Positions 6,943-63,509 of a DNA stretch of 64,000 nucleotides are shown here, piece after piece. The stretch is taken from positions 10,638-74,637 of the forward strand of contig CAYJTG010000005.1 of the NCBI GenBank assembly GCA_964373255.1. The letters are read 5' to 3'. The position numbers and the translations under genes are program-made. Source of the stretch: an uncultured archaeon. Its GTDB lineage: Archaea > Aenigmatarchaeota > Aenigmatarchaeia > GW2011-AR5. The notes beneath the pieces are model-generated. The model saw only the letters and a program-made list of their open reading frames with translations, did no database searches and was not told the origin of the DNA. Each line of letters starts with the position of its first letter. The stretch's first letter is position 1.

Positions 6943-7866
6943 ATGGAAATAGAAACATTACGTGAAACAAAAGAAAGATTGATCATTCCACCTGTTAGTT
7001 CTATTTATCCAGCACTAGGCGTGGCTTACGAGAATGGAGGCTATGAAATAAATCACGCAGGCCTACTTGTAAGGACAGGCAAACATTATTATTATTCTAA
7101 AGCCGAAATCCCTGCGGGATTTCGCATGACAACGGCTGGCGAAGAGCTTGCAATCCAGATTCCATACGAAATAGTTGCAAAGATTCTTGAAAGAACTGAC
7201 GTAAAGGACGTATTGGCAGCCAAGAGCTATACTGATATCAAACAGATTCTTGAATCTTACGCAAAAACCACATCAGAAAAGTCCGCCATTCAATATGTCT
7301 TTGATGCGGAGTCGGAATCAATCCAGCAAACAATTGACGAAAAAGATAAATTGATCATAGACCCGAGAAAAGCCAAGGTCTTTGACGACCTTTTCGCAAG
7401 AGGACCTGACGAAATATACATGTGGCAGTGGACAGAAACGGGACTTCGAGTGCCAAAAGGAAGGGAAGCAGGCAAATACGAAACAGATGCCCAAGGCAGA
7501 AAGTATTGGGCCAGAATAGTTCTTGACGGCGATAAGGAAATCGGAGAAATTTTTGTTCCAGAAGGCGACAGTAGATTAGTTGCTGAATGGGACGAAGTTT
7601 TCGGTGTCCCACGAGTTACAATAGAAAACATGGGCTTTCCACACAAGCCTTATACTACTCACTTTTGGTTTAATGCGACTCCCAACTTAGACAGCACATC
7701 AGGACATTATGACGTTGCCGTCGAGCGCTGGGGCTACTGGCATCGCGATGTCGACGGGGGGTGCCTCGGCGTCGGGGCGAGCTACTGGCGCCTGACTGCG
7801 GGTTCGGCCGACGGCTTCCGCCTCGTTCGGGGGTCGCTACCTGAAATCATTAAAAAAGCAGCTTAA
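6943..7866 (+). CDS. Hypothetical protein with a GC-rich, Gly/Arg/Trp-rich C-terminal segment
   Basis: 307-aa ORF with no recognised motifs. Last ~45 codons (7720-7850) are ~68% GC against ~42% for the window. Confidence 0.3.
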   Translation: MEIETLRETKERLIIPPVSSIYPALGVAYENGGYEINHAGLLVRTGKHYYYSKAEIPAGFRMTTAGEELAIQIPYEIVAKILERTDVKDVLAAKSYTDIKQILESYAKTTSEKSAIQYVFDAESESIQQTIDEKDKLIIDPRKAKVFDDLFARGPDEIYMWQWTETGLRVPKGREAGKYETDAQGRKYWARIVLDGDKEIGEIFVPEGDSRLVAEWDEVFGVPRVTIENMGFPHKPYTTHFWFNATPNLDSTSGHYDVAVERWGYWHRDVDGGCLGVGASYWRLTAGSADGFRLVRGSLPEIIKKAA

Positions 7867-15761: not shown

Positions 15762-16046
15762 CTACATTAAGGAAACGAACAGATAGAAGTTGCAAAGCAA
15801 CTTCAGTTTGCTTTTCCTTATAATCTAGACTTATTATGAAGCAAGTAAATAACCTGAATATTATAACTTGCTTCATTTACATGGAGAATCGAAGATTCTC
15901 CTGTACAATTTCGAATTCCAGGAATTCGAATTGTAATTGAAAATCTGAAGGATTTTCAAATTACAGGTGAAGCGTAGCTTCACCATGTATAGCAAACAAG
16001 AAATATAATATCTGATTCTTTTCTTGTTTAGCTATAATCCCTTCCT
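15762..16046. mobile_element. Composite element in the L37ae-rpoP spacer: family-H element interrupted by a full-length (~203 bp) XY-type hairpin element
   Basis: H left part ctacattaaggaaa...tctagactta (15762-15833), XY insert ttatgaagcaag...gtttagctata (15834-16036), H right end atcccttcct (16037-16046). XY carries 5 hairpin modules. Confidence 0.6.
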
Positions 16047-16068
16047 AAAAGATTTCCAATATATAGAT

Positions 16069-18884: not shown

Positions 18885-18998
18885 ACACCGTGTAATTTAT
18901 TGTCCTAGAATTTGCCTGATAAATATATTGCGATTAAGTATTTAAGCGTTCTTCGTGGCGAGTTTTACAATCTTGTTCGCATAAAATCTTTTGTTCCG

Positions 18999-19129
18999 GC
19001 TCTGTTGAAAACCTATGAAAAAGCATCGACGTAGACCCTTACGTCTTATCGACGTAAGGGTCAGCTAGAGCTATCATCGAGAGATGATAGCTCTCACGTC
19101 GATGCTTTTATTGAGCATTTCAACAGAGC
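18999..19129. mobile_element. Family-A MITE-like palindromic element, copy A1 (131 bp)
   Basis: Terminal inverted repeat gctctgttgaaa / tttcaacagagc, enclosing inverted repeat aaagcatcgacgt / acgtcgatgcttt, two perfect 12-bp hairpins (gacccttacgtc-ttatc-gacgtaagggtc; agagctatcatc-gaga-gatgatagctct). Confidence 0.75.
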
Positions 19130-21712: not shown

Positions 21713-21752
21713 GATATAACACTAGATAGCAATTCTTATATGATTATTTGAA

Positions 21753-22061
21753 TGGGCTTGGCAGGATTTGAACCTGCGTCACAAGCTCCCAATGAGCATC
21801 AAATTATAGCTCTACAAGGAAAGAAACAAGATACAAGAAAGAACGAAGTTCTTTCTGTACAGCAAGAGCAAAGCTCTTGCTTGTATTACTTCCTTGTGAG
21901 CTATATGTGAAACCGGAAAAACATGTCCGGATTCTTTTCTGGTTTCACTATAAGCTCGGATCATAGTCGTATGAGATGCGAAGCATCTCTATGCTCTAAC
22001 CAAATTGTCCCACCTTCCGCTTTGATGCAGCTTTCTGGAAAGGTGCCTAGACTACAAGCCC
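21753..22061 (-). tRNA. tRNA-like gene with about 235 nt of structured intervening sequence (candidate multi-intron tRNA; anticodon not resolved, loop ATTGGGA suggests Pro/UGG)
   Basis: Minus strand: 5' GGGCTTG-TA-GTCTAGG... and 3' ...GTGAC-GCAGG-TTCAAAT-CCTGC-CAAGCCC-A. 7-bp acceptor helix, canonical T arm, discriminator A. Interior has several perfect hairpins. Confidence 0.5.
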
Positions 22062-22262: not shown

Positions 22263-22514
22263 TTAGAGCCGCATCGATTTATTTATCAGGTTATATTTTT
22301 GACTCTTTGATAGTTTCTTGAACGCCACTTCTGCCCTAAGCGCTTCGCCCTTCGTTTCGTGCGCCCAGTATGCAATAATTTCGACCGGAAGCCTGCTTCT
22401 AGTATATTTTGAGGCTTTTCCTTCATTGTGTAGCTTCAGTCTTCTCTTCAAGTTATTGGTATAACCTGTGTAAAATGATCCGTCCTTGCACTTCAAGACG
22501 TATACGTAGAACAT
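22263..22514 (-). CDS. GIY-YIG nuclease family protein (UPF0213-like)
   Basis: MFYVYVLKCKDGSFYTGYTNNLKRRLKLHNEG matches the GIY..YIG..N...R...H motif. Track ORF (to 22553) extends into MITE copy A4, so the internal Met at 22514 is taken as start. Confidence 0.65.
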   Translation of the reverse strand: MFYVYVLKCKDGSFYTGYTNNLKRRLKLHNEGKASKYTRSRLPVEIIAYWAHETKGEALRAEVAFKKLSKSQKYNLINKSMRL

Positions 22515-22524
22515 AAAATTACCT

Positions 22525-22655
22525 GCTCTGTAGAAATGCTCGATAAAGAGCATCGACGTAGACCTATACGTCTCTTGACGTATAGGTCAGCTAGAGATAT
22601 CATCGATAGATGATATCTCTCACGTCGATGCTCTTGCATAGGTTTTCTACAGAGC
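22525..22655. mobile_element. Family-A MITE-like element, diverged copy A4
   Basis: Same architecture as A1. Both internal hairpins carry compensatory substitutions that keep perfect pairing. Confidence 0.65.
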
Positions 22656-22707
22656 AAAATTACCTAATTATATACTATATATTCGGAAAGGATTAAGTCT
22701 GATTTCT

Positions 22708-22815
22708 CAGGAAGGGATTAAGTCTAGACACACAGAAAGCAAAGCTTTCTGGTGCACCAAAGAACCTTTGGTTCTTTGCGTGTTATAAGGGAAACCCAGG
22801 TTTCCCTTAATGTAG
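22708..22815 (-). repeat. Family-H hairpin-string element, copy H3 (reverse orientation)
   Basis: Reverse complement of the 51654-51761 element: cattaagggaaacccaggtttccctta / aaagaaccaaaggttcttt / cagaaagctttgctttctg / tctagacttaatcccttcctg. Confidence 0.6.
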
Positions 22816-22817
22816 AG

Positions 22818-23029
22818 TGGGCTCGCCCGGAATTTCACCGAAGCAGCATAATACTGCGATAGCCACCTAAGGATGGTAATGCCTTAGGAAGGATATCCTT
22901 CCTCGGCTTTGAACCGGGGTCTCATGCTTTTCAGTTTCTTTACTTGATTTTTCTGACTTTCTTGATTAAACTTCTTTTCAAAAGAAGTTTACCCTAAGCA
23001 CGGATCCTAACCAAACTAGACTACGAGCC
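22818..23029 (-). tRNA. Second tRNA-like gene with ~140 nt structured interior; 3' T-arm non-canonical (uncertain)
   Basis: Minus strand 5' GGGCTCG-TA-GTCTAGTTTGGTTAGGATCC... and 3' ...CGAGCCC-A (7-bp acceptor complement 212 nt apart). 5' 15 nt nearly identical to the 21753-22061 gene. Internal CCCGG-TTCAAAG-CCGAG T-arm-like segment. Interior has perfect hairpins (aaacttctttt-gaaa-agaagttt; gaaggatatccttc). Confidence 0.3.
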
Positions 23030-23069
23030 CATAAATTCTACATAGTTTATTAGATTTTTAAGGGGGTGA

Positions 23070-23212
23070 GACACTGTCAACTTAAGGGGTACATAATGGA
23101 ATCGAAGATTCCACTTGTACAGGTGAAGCTTTGCTTCACCATGTATTAGCTATCGCTAATACCCCAGAAAAGGCTGTTGCCTATAGGCAACAGCCGTTAA
23201 GTTGACAGTGCC
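23070..23212. mobile_element. Family-Z TIR element, copy Z1 (internal module replaced)
   Basis: TIRs cactgtcaacttaag / cttaagttgacagtg; internal ggctgttgcc-tatag-gcaacagcc hairpin. Central segment carries the ggaatcgaagattcc and caggtgaagctttgcttcacc modules seen at 15880-16000. Confidence 0.6.
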
Positions 23213-23217
23213 ATGGA

Positions 23218-24123
23218 GTGAACGTTATTAAAGTTCCGGTACAATTTCTAGAGATGCCTATTCCAAAAGGTTTTGATGACCTCGTTAAATTAGCCGTGAA
23301 GGACAGGCCGGAGAAGCCAAAAACCATCGAGGAAGTATGGGATAAATTTCTTTTTGTTGTTTTCATGGGCGGAAAGCGGTCAGAGCCTGAAATACAGTTT
23401 ATTACAACCATGCTCAAGGCAAAGAAACTTGTCCAGTTTGACTATGTCCTGAAGACAGACGGCGACGACTGGCGCGAAGCCGTTGAAGCAGTGCTCAACG
23501 ACCGATTGAAGAGAATGCAGGACGAGGACCTTAAGGTAGCGCTAAAAGAATTCCAAAAAGAGATATTTAGGATAAGCGCTTCAATCAAGGGGGGTGCACG
23601 ATTTTTAAAAAACATGACACCTGACGGACTCGCCGAGGCGCTCAGCAACAAAGAAAAGACTTGGGAATTCATCGAAAACCTGGCCAACAACCAGGACGTT
23701 TCCAACATAAAGTATACAAAGATAATCATTTGGCTGCATTCCATAGGCTACGGCTATGATTTTTGCCCGCCGAGCTGGCAAACAAAAAAATTCATCAATA
23801 CCGAGGTCGGGCCGTATTACAACTTCTACGAGGACGATAAGTATTTCATGAAAAAAGCCGAGGAGTTTTCTGAAGACGTCAAGAAAAAGGTCAAAGGCGC
23901 AACAGCCCGAGACGTGTCTGCGGCAATTTATTATTATATGGTATTAAAAAATTCTCTCCCCACGCGTTCTCCAATAAAGAAAAGATGTACGGCGGCGGTC
24001 ATAGTCCGGTTCCTTAAGAAAAAGAAGCTTTCACTTAAAGACATTTCTGCCGCTCTTGTCGATTTTGACGGCAGAGAGAGGATTATGAAAACATTTTTTG
24101 AATTTTTGAATAAGACAAAATAA
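23218..24123 (+). CDS. Hypothetical protein, 301 aa
   Basis: Long ORF with reasonable codon usage; no motif recognised. Confidence 0.3.
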   Translation: MNVIKVPVQFLEMPIPKGFDDLVKLAVKDRPEKPKTIEEVWDKFLFVVFMGGKRSEPEIQFITTMLKAKKLVQFDYVLKTDGDDWREAVEAVLNDRLKRMQDEDLKVALKEFQKEIFRISASIKGGARFLKNMTPDGLAEALSNKEKTWEFIENLANNQDVSNIKYTKIIIWLHSIGYGYDFCPPSWQTKKFINTEVGPYYNFYEDDKYFMKKAEEFSEDVKKKVKGATARDVSAAIYYYMVLKNSLPTRSPIKKRCTAAVIVRFLKKKKLSLKDISAALVDFDGRERIMKTFFEFLNKTK

Positions 24124-24217
24124 GTATAATCAGTATTGGGCATTCGTCTTGCACAGAAGCAATTGCGTACAAATAGCTACGAGCCCAGCAATTTCTATAA
24201 TGATTTATTATGCATTT

Positions 24218-24372
24218 AAATCTAAGAATTCCACTGTTTTGAAATCTTGCATTCCACCTATCTATTGATGGGTGGTGGAATACGGGATGTAAGAACCACT
24301 GTAATACGTGGCATTGACCAATTTCAAGATGCCACTGGTCTTTGACCAGTGGTTCTTCACATTGGTGGTATT
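24218..24372. repeat. Left copy of the aaatctaagaattccactgtttt...ggatgtaaga.ccactgt direct repeat, with CCACTG boxes
   Basis: Shares about 60 bp in two blocks with 25371-25480, same orientation. Contains aaccactgt and the palindrome ccactggtc-tttg-accagtgg. Confidence 0.55.
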
Positions 24373-24904: not shown

Positions 24905-25345
24905 TTAATCGCCTACAGGATCTTTTTTATACAACCATGTGTTTCTTTTTTCTGGATGCTTGAAAAAGTGCTTATGCATATAATCCTTCATATAGTCATC
25001 TGTTTTGTATACAAGTTTTGCGTATTTGTTTATACCATCAACTTGTATTTTGCTTGTGCGCGTAAAACGCCCTGCCCTGAATTTCTTAATAGCATGCCGC
25101 ACATCTATATAATTAATACCGCTAGTGTTGTATTGTCTTATAACAGCATTGAGAATAGAAAATGGAGCATCATAAATATTGTTTTCCTGATATAATTCTC
25201 TAATTTCTTCTGCCAAATCTTTAACAAGCTGCGGTTGTTTAGTAGAATCGATAACATGATTCAGTGCGCCCTCGATTATTGTAATGTCTGTTTTGGAATC
25301 TTTTGAAGGGAATTGTGCTTCTATAAGAAATTCTTTGAATCTCAT
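24905..25345 (-). CDS. Hypothetical protein, 146 aa
   Basis: No recognised motifs. Lies between the two direct repeats. Confidence 0.3.
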   Translation of the reverse strand: MRFKEFLIEAQFPSKDSKTDITIIEGALNHVIDSTKQPQLVKDLAEEIRELYQENNIYDAPFSILNAVIRQYNTSGINYIDVRHAIKKFRAGRFTRTSKIQVDGINKYAKLVYKTDDYMKDYMHKHFFKHPEKRNTWLYKKDPVGD

Positions 25346-25370
25346 AGAAATAGCATAAATGAAATGTTTT

Positions 25371-25501
25371 TAAATCTAAGAATTCCACTGTTTTCAAACA
25401 ATGATAGGGTGGAATTCTGGATGTAAGAGCCACTGTCTTTATACAGTGCTTTACCACTGTTTTGTAATTTTTGCCACTGTTATCTCGCAAAAATCACACT
25501 G
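25371..25501. promoter_or_regulatory. Array of five CCACTGT / CACTGT boxes immediately upstream of nrdR (right copy of the direct repeat)
   Basis: CCACTGT at 25384, 25429, 25453, 25473 and cactgt at 25496, spaced ~45, 24, 20, 22 bp. The second forms the palindrome cactgt-ctttat-acagtg. nrdR ATG at 25639. Confidence 0.45.
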
Positions 25502-34971: not shown

Positions 34972-34980
34972 TTACATAGT

Positions 34981-35167
34981 GCTCTGTAGAAAACCTATGC
35001 AAGAGCATCGACGTGAGAGCTATTATCTTCTAAGATAACAAAGTTATCTTGAAGATTCAGGTTGACTTTGTCAACCATGAATCTGTCGATAATAGCTCTA
35101 GCTGACCTATACGTCAAGAGACGTATAGGTCTACGTCGATGCTCTTTATCGTGCATTTCTACAGAGC
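34981..35167. mobile_element. Family-A MITE-like element, copy A5 with inverted core plus a 70-bp insert
   Basis: Same TIRs and cgtcgatgc inverted repeats as A1. Internal hairpin pair is in reverse-complement order relative to A1/A2/A3. Also carries an extra insert ttctaagataacaaagttatcttgaa... Confidence 0.65.
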
Positions 35168-35220
35168 TTTACATAGGAAATCTCATCAACTTTTTATAAA
35201 AGGCACTACAATAGATTTCT

Positions 35221-40788: not shown

Positions 40789-42447
40789 ATGGTTGATTCT
40801 GTTGACAATATTGTGCGAAAATACACCCTCGTAAATGCCACCGAGCACGAGGGCAACGCGCAGCCGAAAAGCGTTCTTGGGAAGATCCTCGGAGAATACC
40901 CAGAGCTCAGGACGCAGATATTTGAGCTCAGGACAAAGATAGAGAATGCGGTCCATGAAATTAACAAGCTCGGTCTTGTGCGGCAAAAGAAGGAGCTGGA
41001 GGAATTAGGCGGCTACGCGCCTCAGGCAAGGATAGAAAAGAAGGGGCTTCCTGAATTGGAGCGCGGTCGTGAGAAGTTTGTTGTCAGGTTCGCACCAAAC
41101 CCAGACGGCGCATTGCATATAGGCAACGCACGGCCCGCTATTCTGTCCGATGAGTATGCAAAAAAATACCACGGAAAATTCATCCTGCGCTTTGACGATA
41201 CAGACCCAAAGGTAAAGACAGCTGAAAAAAAATTCTACAAATGGATACGGGAAGACCTCAAGTGGCTGAAGATTCGCGTTAACCAGGAGATAATTGCATC
41301 AAAGCGCCTGAAGTTATATTATAGCATAGCCCAAAAGCTTATTCAGGTCAAAGGCGCGTACGTCTGCACGTGCAATCCTGATAGCTGGAAAAAAATGAGA
41401 GACCACGAAAGGGCGTGCCAGTGCAGAAACCTCGACTTCAAAATTCAAATGAAGCGCTGGAAAGCAATGTTAAAGCATAAATACAAGGAAGGCCAGGCCG
41501 TGCTTCGCGTCAAGACGGACATGGATGCAAAGAACCCCGCCGTAAGAGACTGGCCCGCTTTCCGCATTGTCGACAAACCAGACCATCCGCTGCAGAAAAA
41601 AGCAAAGCTCTGGCCGCTCTATAATTTTGCATCAGCCGTTGACGACCACCTGACAGGCGTTACGCATATATTTCGCGGGCAAGAACATTCAACAAATGAA
41701 GTGAAACAGCGGTACTTCTACCAGCATATGAAGTGGAATTATCCCGTTGTCGTGACACTGGGAAGATTCTCGCTGTCGGGCATGGTATTGAGCAAGAGCC
41801 AAATAAAAGAGGGCATCGAAAAACACAGATTCAGGGACTGGGATGACGTAAGGGTTGGAACTCTGCGAGCTTTGCGCCGCCGTGGGTTTCAGTCAGAATC
41901 TATCAGGCAGATTATTGTTGATATAGGGCCGAAGCCGTCGGACATCACGATTTCTTTTGAAAATCTTTCAGCCTATAATCGCAAAATCATTGATAGAAGT
42001 GCCAATCGCTATTTCTTTGTGGCAAACCCGAAGAAGATAGAGATAAAGGGCATGAAGATCAAGAAAGCACGAATACCGCTGCACCCCGATGATAAAAGGC
42101 GCGGATACAGGAGTTTCTACCTTACATCAACATTTTTTATAGATGAAAAGGATTTTGTCGCATACAAGGGCGTTGAAATAAGGTTGAAGGAGCTCTGCAA
42201 CGTTAAGCTTGATGACCGGAGCGAATTCACCGGTGCACAACTCAAGGCAACGCCAAAAATACAGTGGGTGCCCGCAAAGCACTGCATTGTACGTGTAGTA
42301 ATGCCAAACAAGGAGATCAAGGGCTACGGGGAAATAAACCTGCTCAAAACAAGGACCGGTGATATTGTCCAGTTCGAGCGCTTTGGATTCGTGCGCATCG
42401 AGAAGATCCAGGGCAAGAATGTCGTCGCAGTTTTCGGGCACGAGTGA
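40789..42447 (+). CDS. gltX: Glutamyl-tRNA synthetase (archaeal non-discriminating type)
   Basis: HIGH motif ALHIGNARP and KMSKS-like VLSKSQ; archaeal-type C-terminal anticodon-binding domain. 552 aa. Confidence 0.9.
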   Translation: MVDSVDNIVRKYTLVNATEHEGNAQPKSVLGKILGEYPELRTQIFELRTKIENAVHEINKLGLVRQKKELEELGGYAPQARIEKKGLPELERGREKFVVRFAPNPDGALHIGNARPAILSDEYAKKYHGKFILRFDDTDPKVKTAEKKFYKWIREDLKWLKIRVNQEIIASKRLKLYYSIAQKLIQVKGAYVCTCNPDSWKKMRDHERACQCRNLDFKIQMKRWKAMLKHKYKEGQAVLRVKTDMDAKNPAVRDWPAFRIVDKPDHPLQKKAKLWPLYNFASAVDDHLTGVTHIFRGQEHSTNEVKQRYFYQHMKWNYPVVVTLGRFSLSGMVLSKSQIKEGIEKHRFRDWDDVRVGTLRALRRRGFQSESIRQIIVDIGPKPSDITISFENLSAYNRKIIDRSANRYFFVANPKKIEIKGMKIKKARIPLHPDDKRRGYRSFYLTSTFFIDEKDFVAYKGVEIRLKELCNVKLDDRSEFTGAQLKATPKIQWVPAKHCIVRVVMPNKEIKGYGEINLLKTRTGDIVQFERFGFVRIEKIQGKNVVAVFGHE

Positions 42448-42448
42448 A

Positions 42449-42616
42449 ACTACATTAAGGGAAAAGAACAGATAGAAGTTGCTTCGCAACTTCAGTTTGT
42501 CTTTCCCTTAAAATGCTCAAAGAACCGAAGGTTCTTTGACATCTGCAAAGAAGCATAGCTTCTTTGAGATTCCGAAAAGCTTTGCTTTCTGAGCATCTAG
42601 ACTTAATCCTTTCCTG
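42449..42616 (+). repeat. Family-H hairpin-string element, copy H1, abutting the gltX stop codon
   Basis: ctacattaagggaaa[...gaagttgc-ttcg-gcaacttc...]tttccctta / aaagaaccgaaggttcttt / ...tctagacttaatcctttcctg. Confidence 0.6.
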
Positions 42617-46650: not shown

Positions 46651-46846
46651 GCACTGTCAACTTATTATGAAGCAAGTAAATAATCTGGATATTATAGCAA
46701 ACAAGAAATATAATACCTGATTCTTTTCTTGTTTAGCTATAAGGGTGGTTAGCCATTGCTAACCACCCAGAAAAGGCTGTTGCCAAAGCAGATAGACGCA
46801 CTTTAGTGCGTCAGTTTGTTTCAACAGCCGCTAAGTTGACAGTGCC
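46651..46846. mobile_element. Family-Z TIR element, copy Z2, with two nested insertions
   Basis: TIRs gcactgtcaactta / taagttgacagtgcc. A 79-bp XY-type element (ttatgaagcaagtaaataatctg...gtttagctata) inserted after caactta. A second hairpin module (agatagacgcactttagtgcgtcagtttgtttc) lies inside the ggctgttgcc...aacagcc loop. Confidence 0.6.
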
Positions 46847-46850
46847 AAAA

Positions 46851-48889: not shown

Positions 48890-48910
48890 GATTATAAACC
48901 TCTTACTTTG

Positions 48911-49041
48911 GCTCTGTTGAAAACCTATGAAAAAGCATCGACGTAGACCCTTACGTCTTATCGACGTAAGGGTCAGCTAGAGCTATTGTCAAAAGACAAT
49001 AGCTCTCACGTCGATGCTTTTATTGAGCATTTCAACAGAGC
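48911..49041. mobile_element. Family-A MITE-like element, copy A2, filling the S24e-S27ae spacer
   Basis: Identical TIRs and outer stems to A1. Second hairpin carries compensatory change (ctattgtc-aaaa-gacaatag versus ctatcatc-gaga-gatgatag). Confidence 0.75.
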
Positions 49042-50796: not shown

Positions 50797-50976
50797 TCAC
50801 ACCTTTATCGCGTACTTTCCAGGCGCAGTTATTCCAAGCTTTTTCGCGACTTCTGATTCTGTATCAAATATTACAACTACGCCCTGAAAGCTGCTCGTTG
50901 TGTTTGTGGATTTGCACACGGGGCATACGTTTCCCTTTGTTATTATCGCCTTGCAGTCCTTGCACGCTTTTTTCAT
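50797..50976 (-). CDS. spt4: Spt4 / RNA polymerase subunit E'' (59 aa), not in ORF track
   Basis: Hand translation: MKKACKDCKAIITKGNVCPVCKSTNTTSSFQGVVVIFDTESEVAKKLGITAPGKYAIKV. C4 Zn ribbon plus GKYAI(K/R)V C-terminus are Spt4 hallmarks. Confidence 0.75.
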   Translation of the reverse strand: MKKACKDCKAIITKGNVCPVCKSTNTTSSFQGVVVIFDTESEVAKKLGITAPGKYAIKV

Positions 50977-51087
50977 AATACATCCCTTTTCTTAAGACTG
51001 ATAGACGCATCGAAGATGCGTCAGTTTGTTTAAGGTCTGTATCAATCCCAAAAGAACATGGGATCTTTCAGACCTTCAATTTCAATA

Positions 51088-51642
51088 TTACCTTTCCCTC
51101 TTCTTCTTTTTTTTATCCTTCTCTATCCAGTCCAGCGACCCAAGCAGCGGCTGCCTCATTGTAAGCGATATCTTGCTCCGGCCCTTTCCCAGAGAGACGC
51201 CAACAATGCGCGCCCTCACGAGGTCGCCCTCTTTCAGTCTGTATCCTGATTTCTTTCCTGTGAATATGGAATTTTTTGCATCGTAAGCAATCTTGTCGTC
51301 CATTATCTGGCTTACATGGATCAGCGCGTCCAGCGGCCCGACTCTTGTGAATGCGCCAAATTCCGTGATATCGACTACCTCGCCAAGTACAATCTCGTTG
51401 AGTTCAGGTCTGTAGGCGAGTATCTTGAATTCGACAGGATAATAAATTGCGCCATCCTCGGGAATTATTTTTCCCTCACCGACCTTAAGAACTTCGGTCA
51501 CCGCCAGAAAAACTCCTACGTCAGGATTCAGTTTTCCCTCGATCTGCTCCTGAAGAGATTCTTTGACAGACTGCCCCAATTCAAGGTCAAACTTCGTCGG
51601 CGGCACGCGCACTTCGTCCTTAACCGTCAGTATTTTGAACAT
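51088..51642 (-). CDS. rpoE: RNA polymerase subunit E' (Rpo7/RpoE), S1 domain
   Basis: MFKILTVKDEVRVPP...N-terminal domain then S1 fold (GEVVDITEFGAFTRVGPLDALIHVSQI). 184 aa with Lys-rich tail. Confidence 0.8.
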   Translation of the reverse strand: MFKILTVKDEVRVPPTKFDLELGQSVKESLQEQIEGKLNPDVGVFLAVTEVLKVGEGKIIPEDGAIYYPVEFKILAYRPELNEIVLGEVVDITEFGAFTRVGPLDALIHVSQIMDDKIAYDAKNSIFTGKKSGYRLKEGDLVRARIVGVSLGKGRSKISLTMRQPLLGSLDWIEKDKKKKKRER

Positions 51643-51653
51643 TCTAAATCACT

Positions 51654-51761
51654 CTACATTAAGGGAAACCCAGGTTTCCCTTATAACACGCAAAGAACCA
51701 AAGGTTCTTTGGTGCACCAGAAAGCTTTGCTTTCTGTGTGTCTAGACTTAATCCCTTCCTG
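51654..51761 (+). repeat. Family-H hairpin-string element, copy H2, immediately upstream of rpoE
   Basis: cattaagggaaacccaggtttccctta / aaagaaccaaaggttcttt / cagaaagctttgctttctg / tctagacttaatcccttcctg. Confidence 0.6.
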
Positions 51762-52016
51762 AAATTTTTGCTTAAGCTTTTTTAAAAAAGCTTACTAGAC
51801 TTGCCTTCCCTCACTTGCCTGTTTGTTCTCATGAGTAGTTAGAAATTTTAAAATCATGAAGAACATATCTTTCTTGAGAGTAAGAGGTTTTAAAGCTTTC
51901 TTTCATCGGTATTGAAAAATTAACATTCCACCATTTTTCTACAGTATCTCCGAAAGTTGGATTACTGCCTCTTTGCAGTAATCCTCTACCGAGGTATATG
52001 CCACAAGGCGTATACC

Positions 52017-52307: not shown

Positions 52308-52546
52308 CGAATAAACCCGATTCCAACTATCATAGAAAACTTTTTAAAGACGTTTCTGTTTTTTGTTCTGTATGTTAAGTTAATGTGATCCAAATAAATA
52401 ATCGTGATACTAAATTTGGATCACAGTACATAGCGAAACAAAGTTTCGCTTGTACAGGTAAAGCTTTGCTTTACCATGTACTGTGCACAAGGAATGTAAT
52501 ATACCGATTCATTCCTTGTAGCACATTAAAAGAAAACAGAGCCCGT

Positions 52547-55977: not shown

Positions 55978-56263
55978 TCTTCAACACCTTCTATTTTTTA
56001 TTAGGGCGATACATAAGTCGGTCTAGTTGTTTGTTGATTGAGCAAAGACCGTCTTTCGTATTCAATACCCCTTTATATTTTCGTTAGAAACAGGACCTCA
56101 ATGAAGCTCTAGTAAAAGCGAAAAATCGCCCCGACTTCTTAACTAAAGCCAAAAACCCTGAATTCCGGGTTCCTTCTGCCTTACTTCCCTTCACTTACTT
56201 CCTTTCCCTAACAGTACTAATTATTGATAAAAGATAAGTATTTAAAAAGGATAAATCGGAGGG

Positions 56264-56351
56264 GCACTGTCAACTTAAGGGTGGTTAGCTGTTGCTAACC
56301 ACCCAGAAAAGGCTGTTGCCGATAGGCAACAGCCGTTAAGTTGACAGTGCC
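56264..56351. mobile_element. Family-Z TIR element, compact canonical copy Z3 (88 bp)
   Basis: ggcactgtcaacttaag / gggtggttagc-tgtt-gctaaccaccc / agaaaa / ggctgttgcc-gatag-gcaacagcc / gttaagttgacagtgcc. Two perfect hairpins inside perfect 16-bp TIRs. Confidence 0.7.
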
Positions 56352-56422
56352 ATCGGAGGCAAACTTGTTTTTACTTGTCTTTTCTTGAGAATTTCTTACT
56401 TGATTTTCTTTCTTAAAGAAAA

Positions 56423-61544: not shown

Positions 61545-61722
61545 CAATCGTAATTTTCCCGTGGTTTTAGCAAACGCTTTAATAGTTTTGTAGGTTATTT
61601 TTTTGTTACTGGTCAAAAGATACAAAGAGATACATTTATAAAGTTTATGTACAATGAAAATGTAGACAAATTTCAAAAAAATCACGAAAAATAGGAAGGG
61701 ATTAAGTCTAGATTATAAGGGT

Positions 61723-62553
61723 GTGGATATGGTTGCAAGCAATAAGACACTGGATATGCTGAAAACAATCGGCTTGAATAAGTACGAACGCAATTTGTGG
61801 ACAGCGCTTCTTTCTAGAGGTGCGTCTACAGCCGGAGAATTAAGTGATATTTCCAACGTTCCTCGTTCTAGATGCTACGACGTGTTAGAGTCATTGGCAA
61901 CAAAAGGCTTCATTGTAATACAGCCTGGAAAGCCGATAAAATACGTTGCCATGAACCCTAAGGAGGCTTTGGAGCGCGTCAAAAAGAAGATTCGTGAAGA
62001 CGCGGTTGAGACAACGGAAAAGATCGAGCGATTCCTTAAGAGCGACTCGATAAGGGAGCTTGAAAGGCTGCACAAGGAAAATATGAAGGTCATGAACCCT
62101 GAGGACCTTACGGGCGCACTGAAGGGCAGGTACGCCATGCACCAGCAGGTTGAGACGATGCTGAAAAATGCAAAGAAATCCGTGAAGCTTCTTACCACAG
62201 ACCGCGGCCTGAAAGAATTGCTCGATACCCACGGTCCTTTGCTAAAGAGGGTTTCCAATTCTGGCGTGAAAATCCAGATCGCTGCGCCCGTCAGAAAGGA
62301 TGCATTAGATACTGTAAAAGAGCTGGCACAGTACGCGCAGGTAAGAAATATCAGTGATGTTGAGATGGTTGAAAAATTTGCAGGGCGACTTTTCGTTGTT
62401 GACGGCCAGGAATTCGTGCTTGGCCTGACAGACGACACAAAAATACACCCGACACAGGATGTGGCTTTGTGGACGCAGAGCTCGCACGCATCTTCTTCGG
62501 TTTTCGAGCCCATGTTTGAGCTCGTCTGGCATCATGCTAAGCCCGTTAAGTGA
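61723..62553 (+). CDS. TrmB-family transcriptional regulator (third copy)
   Basis: LNKYERNLWTALLSRGASTAGELSDISNVPRSRCYDVLESLATKGFI wHTH plus TrmB C-terminal domain. 276 aa. Confidence 0.6.
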   Translation: MDMVASNKTLDMLKTIGLNKYERNLWTALLSRGASTAGELSDISNVPRSRCYDVLESLATKGFIVIQPGKPIKYVAMNPKEALERVKKKIREDAVETTEKIERFLKSDSIRELERLHKENMKVMNPEDLTGALKGRYAMHQQVETMLKNAKKSVKLLTTDRGLKELLDTHGPLLKRVSNSGVKIQIAAPVRKDALDTVKELAQYAQVRNISDVEMVEKFAGRLFVVDGQEFVLGLTDDTKIHPTQDVALWTQSSHASSSVFEPMFELVWHHAKPVK

Positions 62554-63337: not shown

Positions 63338-63377
63338 AATTTTATATGGCGGATTGTGTTTATATTGGTTTTTATTA

Positions 63378-63509
63378 GCTCTGTTGAAAACCTATGAAAA
63401 AGCATCGACGTAGACCCTTACGTCTTATCTACGTAAGGGTCAGCTAGAGCTATCATCAACAGACGATAGCTCTCACGTCGATGCTTTTTGTTGAGCATTT
63501 CTACAGAGC
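63378..63509. mobile_element. Family-A MITE-like element, copy A3
   Basis: Near-identical to A1 over the first 75 bp; right hairpin variant (ctatcatc-aaca-gacgatag); right TIR tttctacagagc. Confidence 0.75.

Follow-up and report, generated by a model that had tools for sequence, protein, structure and literature searches.

Family H elements at gene starts of Aenigmarchaeota: a candidate portable 5' expression or leader cassette

The conserved part of repeat family H, found in a 64-kb stretch of Aenigmarchaeota DNA (the window, meaning the whole stretch that was analysed), is a cassette of ~57 bases, and in most copies it stands directly before an SD and a start codon. With about even confidence, we take H to be a dispersed, portable 5' expression or leader cassette of a clade of Aenigmarchaeota, working on the strand opposite to that described in the initial annotation. 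Five H loci lie in the window: the four that had been annotated, all of which are present as described, and a truncated one. A covariance-model search, which the initial annotation had proposed, was run on the window and returned no copy beyond these five. In the following features, RE denotes the right-end box, and gene sense is the reverse complement of the strand that had been annotated.

15762–15833, minus strand: H copy before rpoP (start codon 15749–15751; SD-like AGGGAT), 42.2 bits, with CTACATT, an H-long hairpin, TTATAA and the first RE-box half TCTAGACTTA
15834–16036, no strand: XY string of six palindromic modules, which splits the RE box of the rpoP copy and is not part of H
16037–16047, minus strand: second half of the split RE box of the rpoP copy, ATCCCTTCCTA
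22685–22702, plus strand: degenerate second RE box, GGAAAGGATTAAGTCTGA, in tandem upstream of the 22708 copy in the gene-sense direction
22708–22815, plus strand: H copy by tRNA-Pro, with the same two modules as the rpoE' copy and its CTACATT end 2 nt past the tRNA-Pro 3' end
22818–23030, minus strand: tRNA-Pro(AGG) gene split by two insertions that contain hairpins; 2 nt separate the discriminator base from the H copy
42450–42616, minus strand: H copy after gltX, 2 nt past the stop TGA (42445–42447), 55.4 bits, with an H-long hairpin at 42455–42511 (31-nt module in the loop), three modules at 42514–42595 closed by TGCTCA/TGAGCA, and the RE box at 42596–42616
51640–51653, minus strand: rpoE' SD (AGTGAT, 51648–51653) and start codon (51640–51642), directly after the H core
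51654–51761, minus strand in gene sense: H copy before rpoE', 79.8 bits in the covariance model, with CTACATT at 51654–51660, the core hairpin at 51660–51683, TTATAA at 51681–51686, two palindromic modules at 51687–51740 and the RE box at 51741–51761
about 51794–51812, minus strand: degenerate second RE box, GAGGGAAGGCAAGTCTAGT in gene sense, upstream of the rpoE' copy
61692–61721, plus strand: truncated H copy, consisting of the RE box and TTATAAGGG with no hairpin, 33.9 bits

The copies at 22707–22819 and 51650–51762 are 98% identical over 113 nt, internal hairpins included. The 22708 copy is orthologous to a minimal copy in L001, which has the same gene order tRNA-H-GIY-YIG, and the gltX copy is an orphan with no gene start on its CTACATT side. 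The truncated copy, which is on the minus strand in the orientation of the initial annotation, continues into GGGTGTGGAT-ATG (61729), and the TrmB domain of the gene that follows starts at the product of the ATG at 61756. In the window, which has a G+C content of ~43%, the right-end 21-mer TCTAGACTTAATCCYTTCCTG has 4 matches at ≤3 mismatches, where 0.01 would be expected by chance. Three of the H copies have the left 12-mer exactly and a fourth has it with one mismatch; at 2 mismatches it gives 6 matches against 3.9 expected, which is not significant alone. An avoidance of CTAG was discarded, as the observed/expected ratio of 0.64 is ordinary.

Two neighbours of H had been named differently. 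The "rpoE" product is the archaeal RNA polymerase subunit E', Rpb7-like with SHS2_Rpb7-N and S1 domains, and not a sigma factor. What had been called "tRNA-like gene 2" encodes a genuine tRNA-Pro and has two insertions. When the insertions are removed in silico (two in the window, three in L001), ARAGORN returns a canonical tRNA-Pro(AGG) cloverleaf; in the raw 64-kb window, neither a tRNA by ARAGORN nor an Rfam family was found, the tRNA being missed because tRNA-Pro is interrupted by the hairpin insertions.

We searched three databases with the right-end motif: 185,579 species genomes, metagenome contigs and viral contigs. The motif occurs in three contigs from two Aenigmarchaeota/"archaeon" MAGs among the species genomes and in eight metagenome contigs, with no match in the viral contigs; one of the eight, L010, matches inside a bacterial dnaA gene and was discarded as a chance match. 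Relatives of H were seen only in Aenigmarchaeota MAGs and metagenome contigs, and the assignment of the lineage to Aenigmarchaeota is confirmed by homologues of RpoE' and PsmA. The 18 full copies used below are the four of the window, those of L001–L009, two in L011, and those of L012, L016 and L019. H is present at 5 copies per 64 kb in the window versus ~3 per 149 kb in the relatives.

In gene sense, the core consists of one to three units of AGGAAGGGATTAAGTCTAGA, TTWTAA, a 10–11 bp hairpin with the arms TAAGGGAAAC / GTTTCCCTTA, and then TTAATGTAG. In the relatives, H mostly consists of a minimal core 53–57 nt long, and the 53-nt form reads YAGGAAGGGATTAAGTCTAGA, followed by TTWTAA GGGAAACC-NNN-GGTTTCCC TTAATGTAG. 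GTAG is placed 5 nt 3' of the hairpin on this strand, the CTACATT end is the reverse complement of AATGTAG, and the RE box is unstructured, so that H has one conserved hairpin. In a 15-copy alignment, the invariant columns lie within the blocks ATTAAGTCTAG, TT-TAAGG and CCTTAATGTAG, and only a single base of L007 deviates, in the last of these blocks. Within the RE box, the invariant part is ATTAAGTCTAGA. A degenerate second RE box often stands in tandem further upstream (window 22685 and ~51794; L002, L005, L006, L009, L012). The ends had been described as not being inverted repeats, and H as not being a classical MITE, and we agree: CTACATTAAGGG and CCYTTCCTR are not complementary, leaving H without terminal inverted repeats, direct repeats indicative of a target-site duplication flank none of the 18 copies, and the only palindrome is internal and imperfect (TCTACATTAAGGGAAACC / GGTTTCCCTTAAAATCTAGA).

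Several additional features of the core were considered and rejected. A weak hairpin P1 around TCTAGA has 4 bp only, one of them G.U, and is not credible. We dropped an alternative fold in which AAGGGA of the RE box pairs with the hairpin's 3' arm, since the RE and stem variants show no convincing co-variation (4/3 versus 1/7 in a hand count). An extended anti-16S SD in the RE box matches at 11 of 16 positions, with an invariant half that is not SD-like, and the 16S tail used for the comparison was a generic archaeal one.

The position of H relative to genes is the clearest sign of its working strand. Thirteen of the 18 full copies have a start codon 9–17 nt past GTAG with a GGTGAT-type SD in between, the SD setting in 0–3 nt past the end of the core and the start codon coming next; in L011a, the start codon is 46 nt past GTAG. 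It is the CTACATT end that is turned toward a start codon in 13 cases, against one case for the RE end (L003), and this speaks for a 5' cassette that is read in the reverse of the annotated direction. The initial annotation had implied a consistent orientation relative to genes, and its written strand turns out to be opposite to the adjoining gene at rpoE', rpoP and the TrmB-type regulator that follows the truncated copy. Its placement of the element at exact gene boundaries stands.

The genes behind H encode core machinery with one exception, the H+-pyrophosphatase (H+-PPase) gene of L012. They include the RNA polymerase genes rpoE' (window, L016), rpoP (window) and rpoL (L008, L009), as well as psmA (L004, L007), uL22 (L005), eS6 (L011) and SRP54 (L019). 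An intein-containing GTPase gene behind H in L011 is probably aIF2gamma, a class-II aaRS gene in L002 reads as ProRS (proS), and a 32-aa fragment in L006 may be the aIF1/SUI1-like N-terminus that it resembles by reading. Many copies lie between co-directional cistrons (eL43-rpoP, uS19-uL22, eS6-aIF2gamma), and "operon punctuation", as proposed initially, is a fair description of position, though not of the way of working that was proposed with it. Three to four copies have no gene ahead: two past tRNA-Pro (window, L001), one past gltX, and L003, where the next gene is 240 nt away and the RE end adjoins the SD of an AbrB/MazE gene. The left flanks of H are enriched in (A/C)TCAC[CT] in variable register, which is the complement of the functional SD; the tRNA 3' ends CCCACT are among these flanks, and the motif is missing at gltX.

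H had also been described as a string of 3–4 hairpins. This string is one conserved core invaded by independent, unrelated palindromic modules, as is evident from ten copies in the relatives that have no extra modules and from the variation of the modules in number and sequence at two hotspots, the TCTAGA/TTWTAA junction and the hairpin loop. In the window copies and in L003, every extra hairpin sits at the junction. An H-long variant, with a 31-nt module in the loop, is found at window 42450, window 15762 and L006. XY was inserted in the RE box at the TA of GGGAT-TA-AGTCTAGA, with duplication of the TA, and this TA is also where another string interrupts the diverged copy of L016. The genome is rich in small palindromic insertions. 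We discarded a bulge-helix-bulge (BHB) intron reading of the modules in H by eye, as the exon-side GUCUAGA and UUAUAAGG are unpaired.

The core hairpin itself is maintained by compensatory change. Over its 10 bp, the stem is 97.8% paired in the 18 copies, and double changes affect 4 of the 10 pairs. These values were not reached in any of 500 shuffles, and every slid register is worse. GGGAAACC/GGTTTCCC and GGAAAACC/GGTTTTCC are compensated variants of one another, GGG/CCC and GGA/TCC stems occur on one contig (L011), and the L019 stem is shortened symmetrically by 2 bp. Compensatory variation had been claimed initially on other grounds, namely A versus G in aaagaacc-N-aaggttcttt and ttcg versus aaag; these are loop differences, so that the claim survives for the core pairs and not for the cited examples. 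Likewise, the element is structured as had been proposed, through this one hairpin. Compensatory stem changes suit a nucleic-acid structure better than a protein operator, which is a point against a promoter reading.

Leaderless genes predominate among the first genes of the window; their TTTAAA-type boxes stand exactly 23 nt before the ATG, and information content peaks at −28 to −22 from it. Using 27 such genes, we built a promoter matrix. The gene-sense H core scores 5.3 (TTTTAA type) or 3.8 (TTATAA type), compared with a genomic 99th percentile of 3.3 and with real promoters that have a leave-one-out mean of 1.5 and a maximum of 7.7; the opposite strand of H scores 1.7–2.1. The +1 predicted by the matrix is the G of GTAG, coincident with the end of conservation. 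Four of the 18 copies have C or G at the free base of TTNTAA, and in these the matrix no longer selects this site; variants with C score ~3.1–3.2 at a shifted one. A TATA box ~23–24 nt upstream of the start site was not found in the H-long copies (window 42450, window 15762, L006) or in the TTCTAA and TTACAA variants. In the H-long copies, the 31 nt between the TATA-like box and GTAG would break the spacing, while the conserved ends are intact.

Comparison of orthologous loci points to both constraint and turnover. The core is 89–94% identical at three orthologous pairs: rpoL in L008/L009, psmA in L004/L007 and tRNA-H-GIY-YIG in the window and L001. For rpoL and psmA, identity amounts to ~51–53% at third codon positions in the adjoining gene and to 55–60% over the 60 nt past the RE box; the ungapped third-position count of the GIY-YIG pair, 16/84, is unreliable. 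Presence of H at a given gene differs among the relatives as follows.

rpoE': H present in the window and L016; absent in L012, L015, L021 and L022
H+-PPase: H present in L012; absent in the window and L016
psmA: H present in L004 and L007; absent in L018, L019, L020 and L023
SRP54: H present in L019; absent in L018, L020 and L023

H thus appears to be under sequence constraint, yet to be gained or lost before housekeeping genes among close relatives. Two loci suggest what its arrival may bring about. SRP54 is leaderless in L018 and L020, with TTTAAA or TTAATA followed by 23 nt and the ATG; in L019, the same box and spacer are kept and ~95 nt, comprising a hairpin, the H core and GGATGAT-AATT, are added before the ATG. 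Upstream of rpoE' in the window lies a 19-nt promoter-like block, gattttaaaatttctaact, which is common to the H-less L015 and nearly to L016. At both loci, H is located on the downstream side of an older promoter and supplies the SD required by a leadered mRNA. With the older promoter kept upstream in these two testable cases, H need not be a promoter there. A sibling cassette without a TATA-like box, family S, is placed likewise before spt4 (window) and psmA (L019).

Two forms of the cassette, one acting as promoter-plus-SD through DNA sites and the other as a transcribed RNA leader, are about equally compatible with these results, and promoter-plus-SD is our leading reading. It is favoured by the matrix score, by a +1 that falls at the end of conservation, and by the tandem RE boxes. 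A transcribed leader is favoured by the compensation in the stem, the tolerance of self-folding insertions, the upstream promoters that were kept and the intercistronic positions. In the promoter-plus-SD cassette, the TATA-like hexamer would direct initiation at the G of GTAG, and the mRNA would have a leader of ~14 nt beginning at the SD, in a genome with mostly leaderless genes. Where an older promoter survives upstream, transcription would also take in the whole cassette, as a 5' leader. Factors may bind the RE box and the palindrome.

It seems rather unlikely to us that H has no promoter activity at all and is just a structured part of transcripts, a 5' UTR or an element between cistrons, whose synthesis begins at promoters or cistrons further upstream. 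In this case, the hairpin 5 nt before the SD and the purine-rich, SD-like RE box might protect the mRNA from 5'-3' decay, shield the SD or be the binding site of one translational regulator shared by housekeeping genes. The stem changes, compensated even within one contig, are what such an RNA would show, and the non-Watson-Crick cells of the gene-sense stem (four G.T, four A/G and zero A.C) lean the same way. This reading would also account for self-folding insertions that are confined to the hairpin loop and one junction with the flanking core intact, for the ancestral promoters retained upstream in L019 (SRP54) and the window (rpoE'), for the many copies between co-directional cistrons, and for a sibling cassette that has the same placement before spt4 and psmA with no TATA-like box. 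However, it leaves unexplained an above-average TATA-like box exactly 23 nt before the end of the conserved block. The stems are almost purely Watson-Crick, like DNA palindromes, and the folding energy of the whole element shows no consistent strand preference, both strands folding about equally well and L006 favouring the other strand by 4.6 kcal/mol. In addition, the orphans at tRNA-Pro and gltX would be transcribed antisense.

It is quite improbable, in our view, that H is a selfish MITE-like repeat without host function, spread for example by a Y1/HUH-type enzyme acting on the hairpin or by microhomology-mediated copying. The bias toward start codons would then mean that insertions elsewhere were lost or that the SD complement (ATCAC) is the target, and the shared (A/C)TCAC[CT] left flanks, tRNA 3' ends included, agree with the latter; the gltX copy, however, ends at GTAG without an ATCAC flank. 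Presence or absence at the same gene in close relatives, the two 98% identical composite copies at unrelated loci and a genome full of small palindromic insertions would also be expected of such a repeat. An IS200-type TnpA does occur in the clade (L019 11422–11811), but the L019 IS200 hairpins are unrelated to H, and tblastn found no Y1 gene in the 64-kb window. H has a single conserved hairpin and neither terminal inverted repeats nor a target-site duplication, and we identified no transposase or other mechanism of spread. What makes a purely selfish repeat less likely is the conservation of the core at orthologous loci with near-saturated neutral sites, together with the strong enrichment before core information-processing genes.

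The initial model, in which the forward strand (CTACATT...CCTTCCTG) is a functional RNA such as a small RNA, a terminator or a 3' processing site after coding ends, is very hard to sustain: two window copies and L001 do follow a same-strand gene (gltX, tRNA-Pro) and the hairpins fold well on either strand, but this strand is antisense to the adjoining gene in 13 of the 18 copies, the minimal element is one hairpin and not a string, no run of ≥5 T follows the hairpin on either strand of any copy, and Rfam 15 gave no match at gathering thresholds and only sub-threshold miRNA/CrcZ noise in E-value mode. Archaeal termination requires an oligo-U tract. The wrong orientation, the missing U-tract and the lack of an Rfam match exclude a forward-strand ncRNA or terminator as the general function of H.

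The promoter-plus-SD cassette predicts that transcription starts at GTAG and that a factor binds ATTAAGTCTAGA; the window encodes three TrmB-type regulators, which are candidates for this factor. To our knowledge, nothing is known of cis-regulatory DNA in Aenigmarchaeota or other uncultured DPANN archaea. H marks the 5' ends of RNA polymerase, ribosomal, translation-factor, proteasome and SRP genes and therefore offers a handle on expression in reduced genomes, and it fixes start codons for annotation. SRP54, in L019 versus L018 and L020, is a natural experiment in the change from leaderless to SD-led translation. As a more speculative and unlikely extension, H and at least one sibling family (S) might be mobile plug-in gene-start cassettes that are exchanged among the housekeeping genes of Aenigmarchaeota and convert leaderless genes to SD-led ones, with the invading modules belonging to the same population that makes up the multiple introns in the tRNA genes of this lineage. 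Were this true, leaders, the spacers between cistrons and tRNA introns would all owe their shape to a single pool of mobile hairpins.

Among known systems, H is a small dispersed intergenic repeat carrying expression signals, whose closest analogues are bacterial and of which it lacks the defining features in each case; in a literature search, we came upon no account of elements like these for Aenigmarchaeota or DPANN archaea. "Mobile promoter" repeats have been described in bacteria. Like H, the Correia elements (NEMIS/CREE) of Neisseria are short repeats scattered through intergenic DNA, frequently just ahead of a gene, and related strains may have or lack one at a given locus; they can supply outward promoters and be co-transcribed into leaders. 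They differ in being bacterial and in having 26-bp terminal inverted repeats, a TA target duplication, an IHF site and RNase III processing, whereas H is archaeal, ~57 bp long and without such repeats or duplication, and has one hairpin, a non-palindromic RE box and a strict orientation and spacing to the SD. REP/BIME and GTAG-tagged REPs share with H a small palindrome, an unpaired GTAG/CTAC tag, complementary stem changes and the formation of hairpin mosaics in intergenic DNA. In REPs, GTAG is at the 5' foot of the hairpin and mobilisation is by RAYT (PMC3733652). Unlike H, these bacterial elements are mostly downstream of genes and are linked to RAYT genes; in H, GTAG is 5 nt 3' of the hairpin, the position is mostly upstream of genes, and no RAYT was found. 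PATEs derived from IS200/IS605 resemble H in lacking terminal inverted repeats and target duplication, in having a hairpin near one end and in a left end that adjoins a short recurrent flank. They need similar subterminal hairpins at both ends, however, while H has one, its recurrent flank is the functional SD of the neighbouring gene, and the only TnpA seen in the clade goes with unrelated hairpins.

Two further comparisons concern the expression signals themselves. The STAB-SD of Bacillus cryIIIA and other 5' mRNA stabilisers combine a stem-loop with an SD-like purine tract upstream of the real SD, and the layout of H is similar by analogy, although the invariant RE-box part ATTAAGTCTAGA is not SD-like. 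Ordinary archaeal BRE/TATA core promoters have no 57-bp conservation across unrelated genes and genomes and no compensating 10-bp palindrome between the TATA box and +1; what they share with H is a TTTAAA-like box at −29 to −24 from the stop of conservation, a score like that of the window promoters and a position before highly expressed genes.

Several tRNA genes, both in the window and in a contig of a related Aenigmarchaeota genome (L001), are each split by several hairpin-bearing insertions, and the interrupted genes of the window and L001 escape detection by ARAGORN and Rfam:

Window 21751-22060, minus strand: second tRNA-like gene, 3' half GGTTCAAATCCTGCCAAGCCCA, end at ~21754
Window 22818-23030, minus strand: interrupted tRNA-Pro(AGG) gene
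L001 3078-3260: interrupted tRNA gene

The second tRNA-like gene harbors a long insertion of roughly at least 150 nt, which consists of palindromic modules that are the same as those in intergenic strings, that is, runs of such small palindromes. A tRNA-Pro(AGG) was reconstructed from an interrupted gene, and its T-loop contains an insertion of three hairpins (window 22838-22912). This insertion aligns with positions 7384-7456 of a related contig, L012, at ~78% identity with compensatory changes in the stems (alignment A4), and the L012 segment is an intergenic string located immediately 5' of a copy of family H, the dispersed ~57-bp repeat found mostly just upstream of the Shine-Dalgarno (SD) sequence and start codon of housekeeping genes. 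The modules of tRNA introns are therefore found in intergenic DNA as well.

Most first genes of the window appear to be leaderless; a TTTAAA-type box precedes the ATG by exactly 23 nt (upstream of ~27 genes). The SD-led genes have GGTGAT followed, after 4 nt, by ATG. A promoter-like block, TTTAAATCTAAGAATTCCACTG, is duplicated at 24210-24244 and 25364-25398; on the minus strand, the second copy reads TCTTAGATTTAAAAAC, which lies 23 nt before the ATG of the gene at 24905-25345 and is similar to TCTAGATTTTAAGG of H. Two observations in relatives concern the RE box, the right-end motif of H. In L009 (1218-1300), two RE boxes flank a tandem array of AATCCTTTCCTGAA units; the purine/pyrimidine half of the box can amplify by itself. 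In L005 (537-590), the uL2 start (AGGAAAGGATTAGGT-ATG) is immediately preceded by two RE-box-like motifs that lack a hairpin, a hint that the box may have originated from an ordinary SD-stop-start junction between cistrons.

Three other repeat families are present:

Window 50974-51075, minus strand: family S, before spt4
L019 7296-7402: family S, before psmA
Window 18984-19129, 22510-22655, 48896-49041, 63363-63508 and 34980-35170 (the last inverted): 146-nt palindromic family
Window 23137-23214, 46740-46847 and 56263-56353: two-hairpin family (GGCACTGTCAACTTAAGGGTGGTTAGC...)

Family S, read as a second portable leader cassette beside H, is composed of AGGTCT..AAGATCCCA-TTCTTTTGGG, a long hairpin whose stem is fully compensated, and TAAGAAAAGGGATnTnTTATG. 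It occurs at different genes in different genomes, with a mean column identity of 79% (alignment A3). The two-hairpin family adjoins gene starts on their 5' side, one such start being the GTG at 23218. At the GIY-YIG gene, one copy of the 146-nt family separates the conserved AGGTAATTTT leader from the ATG.

The gene for an IS200-type Y1 transposase (130 aa) is complete in L019 (11422-11811), where it lies between CCACC(G)...(C)GGTGG hairpins, and no such gene was found in the 64-kb window. Two relatives contain inteins, one in a GHVDHGK GTPase, probably aIF2gamma (L011, ~300-440), and one in a ribonucleotide reductase (L016, 1-2340).

Of 47 perfect hairpins with stems of at least 8 bp, 40 lie in the non-coding 15% of the window (for example 15883-15984, 21836-21881, 23122-23195 and 52432-52475). 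Many are palindromes of 22-28 nt whose ends are CA...TG and which are linked via TA to give TGTACA junctions. In this arrangement they look like TA-targeting miniature insertions, and the 146-nt family, with its terminal arms GGCTCTGTTGAAA.../...TTTCAACAGAGCC, looks like a true MITE.
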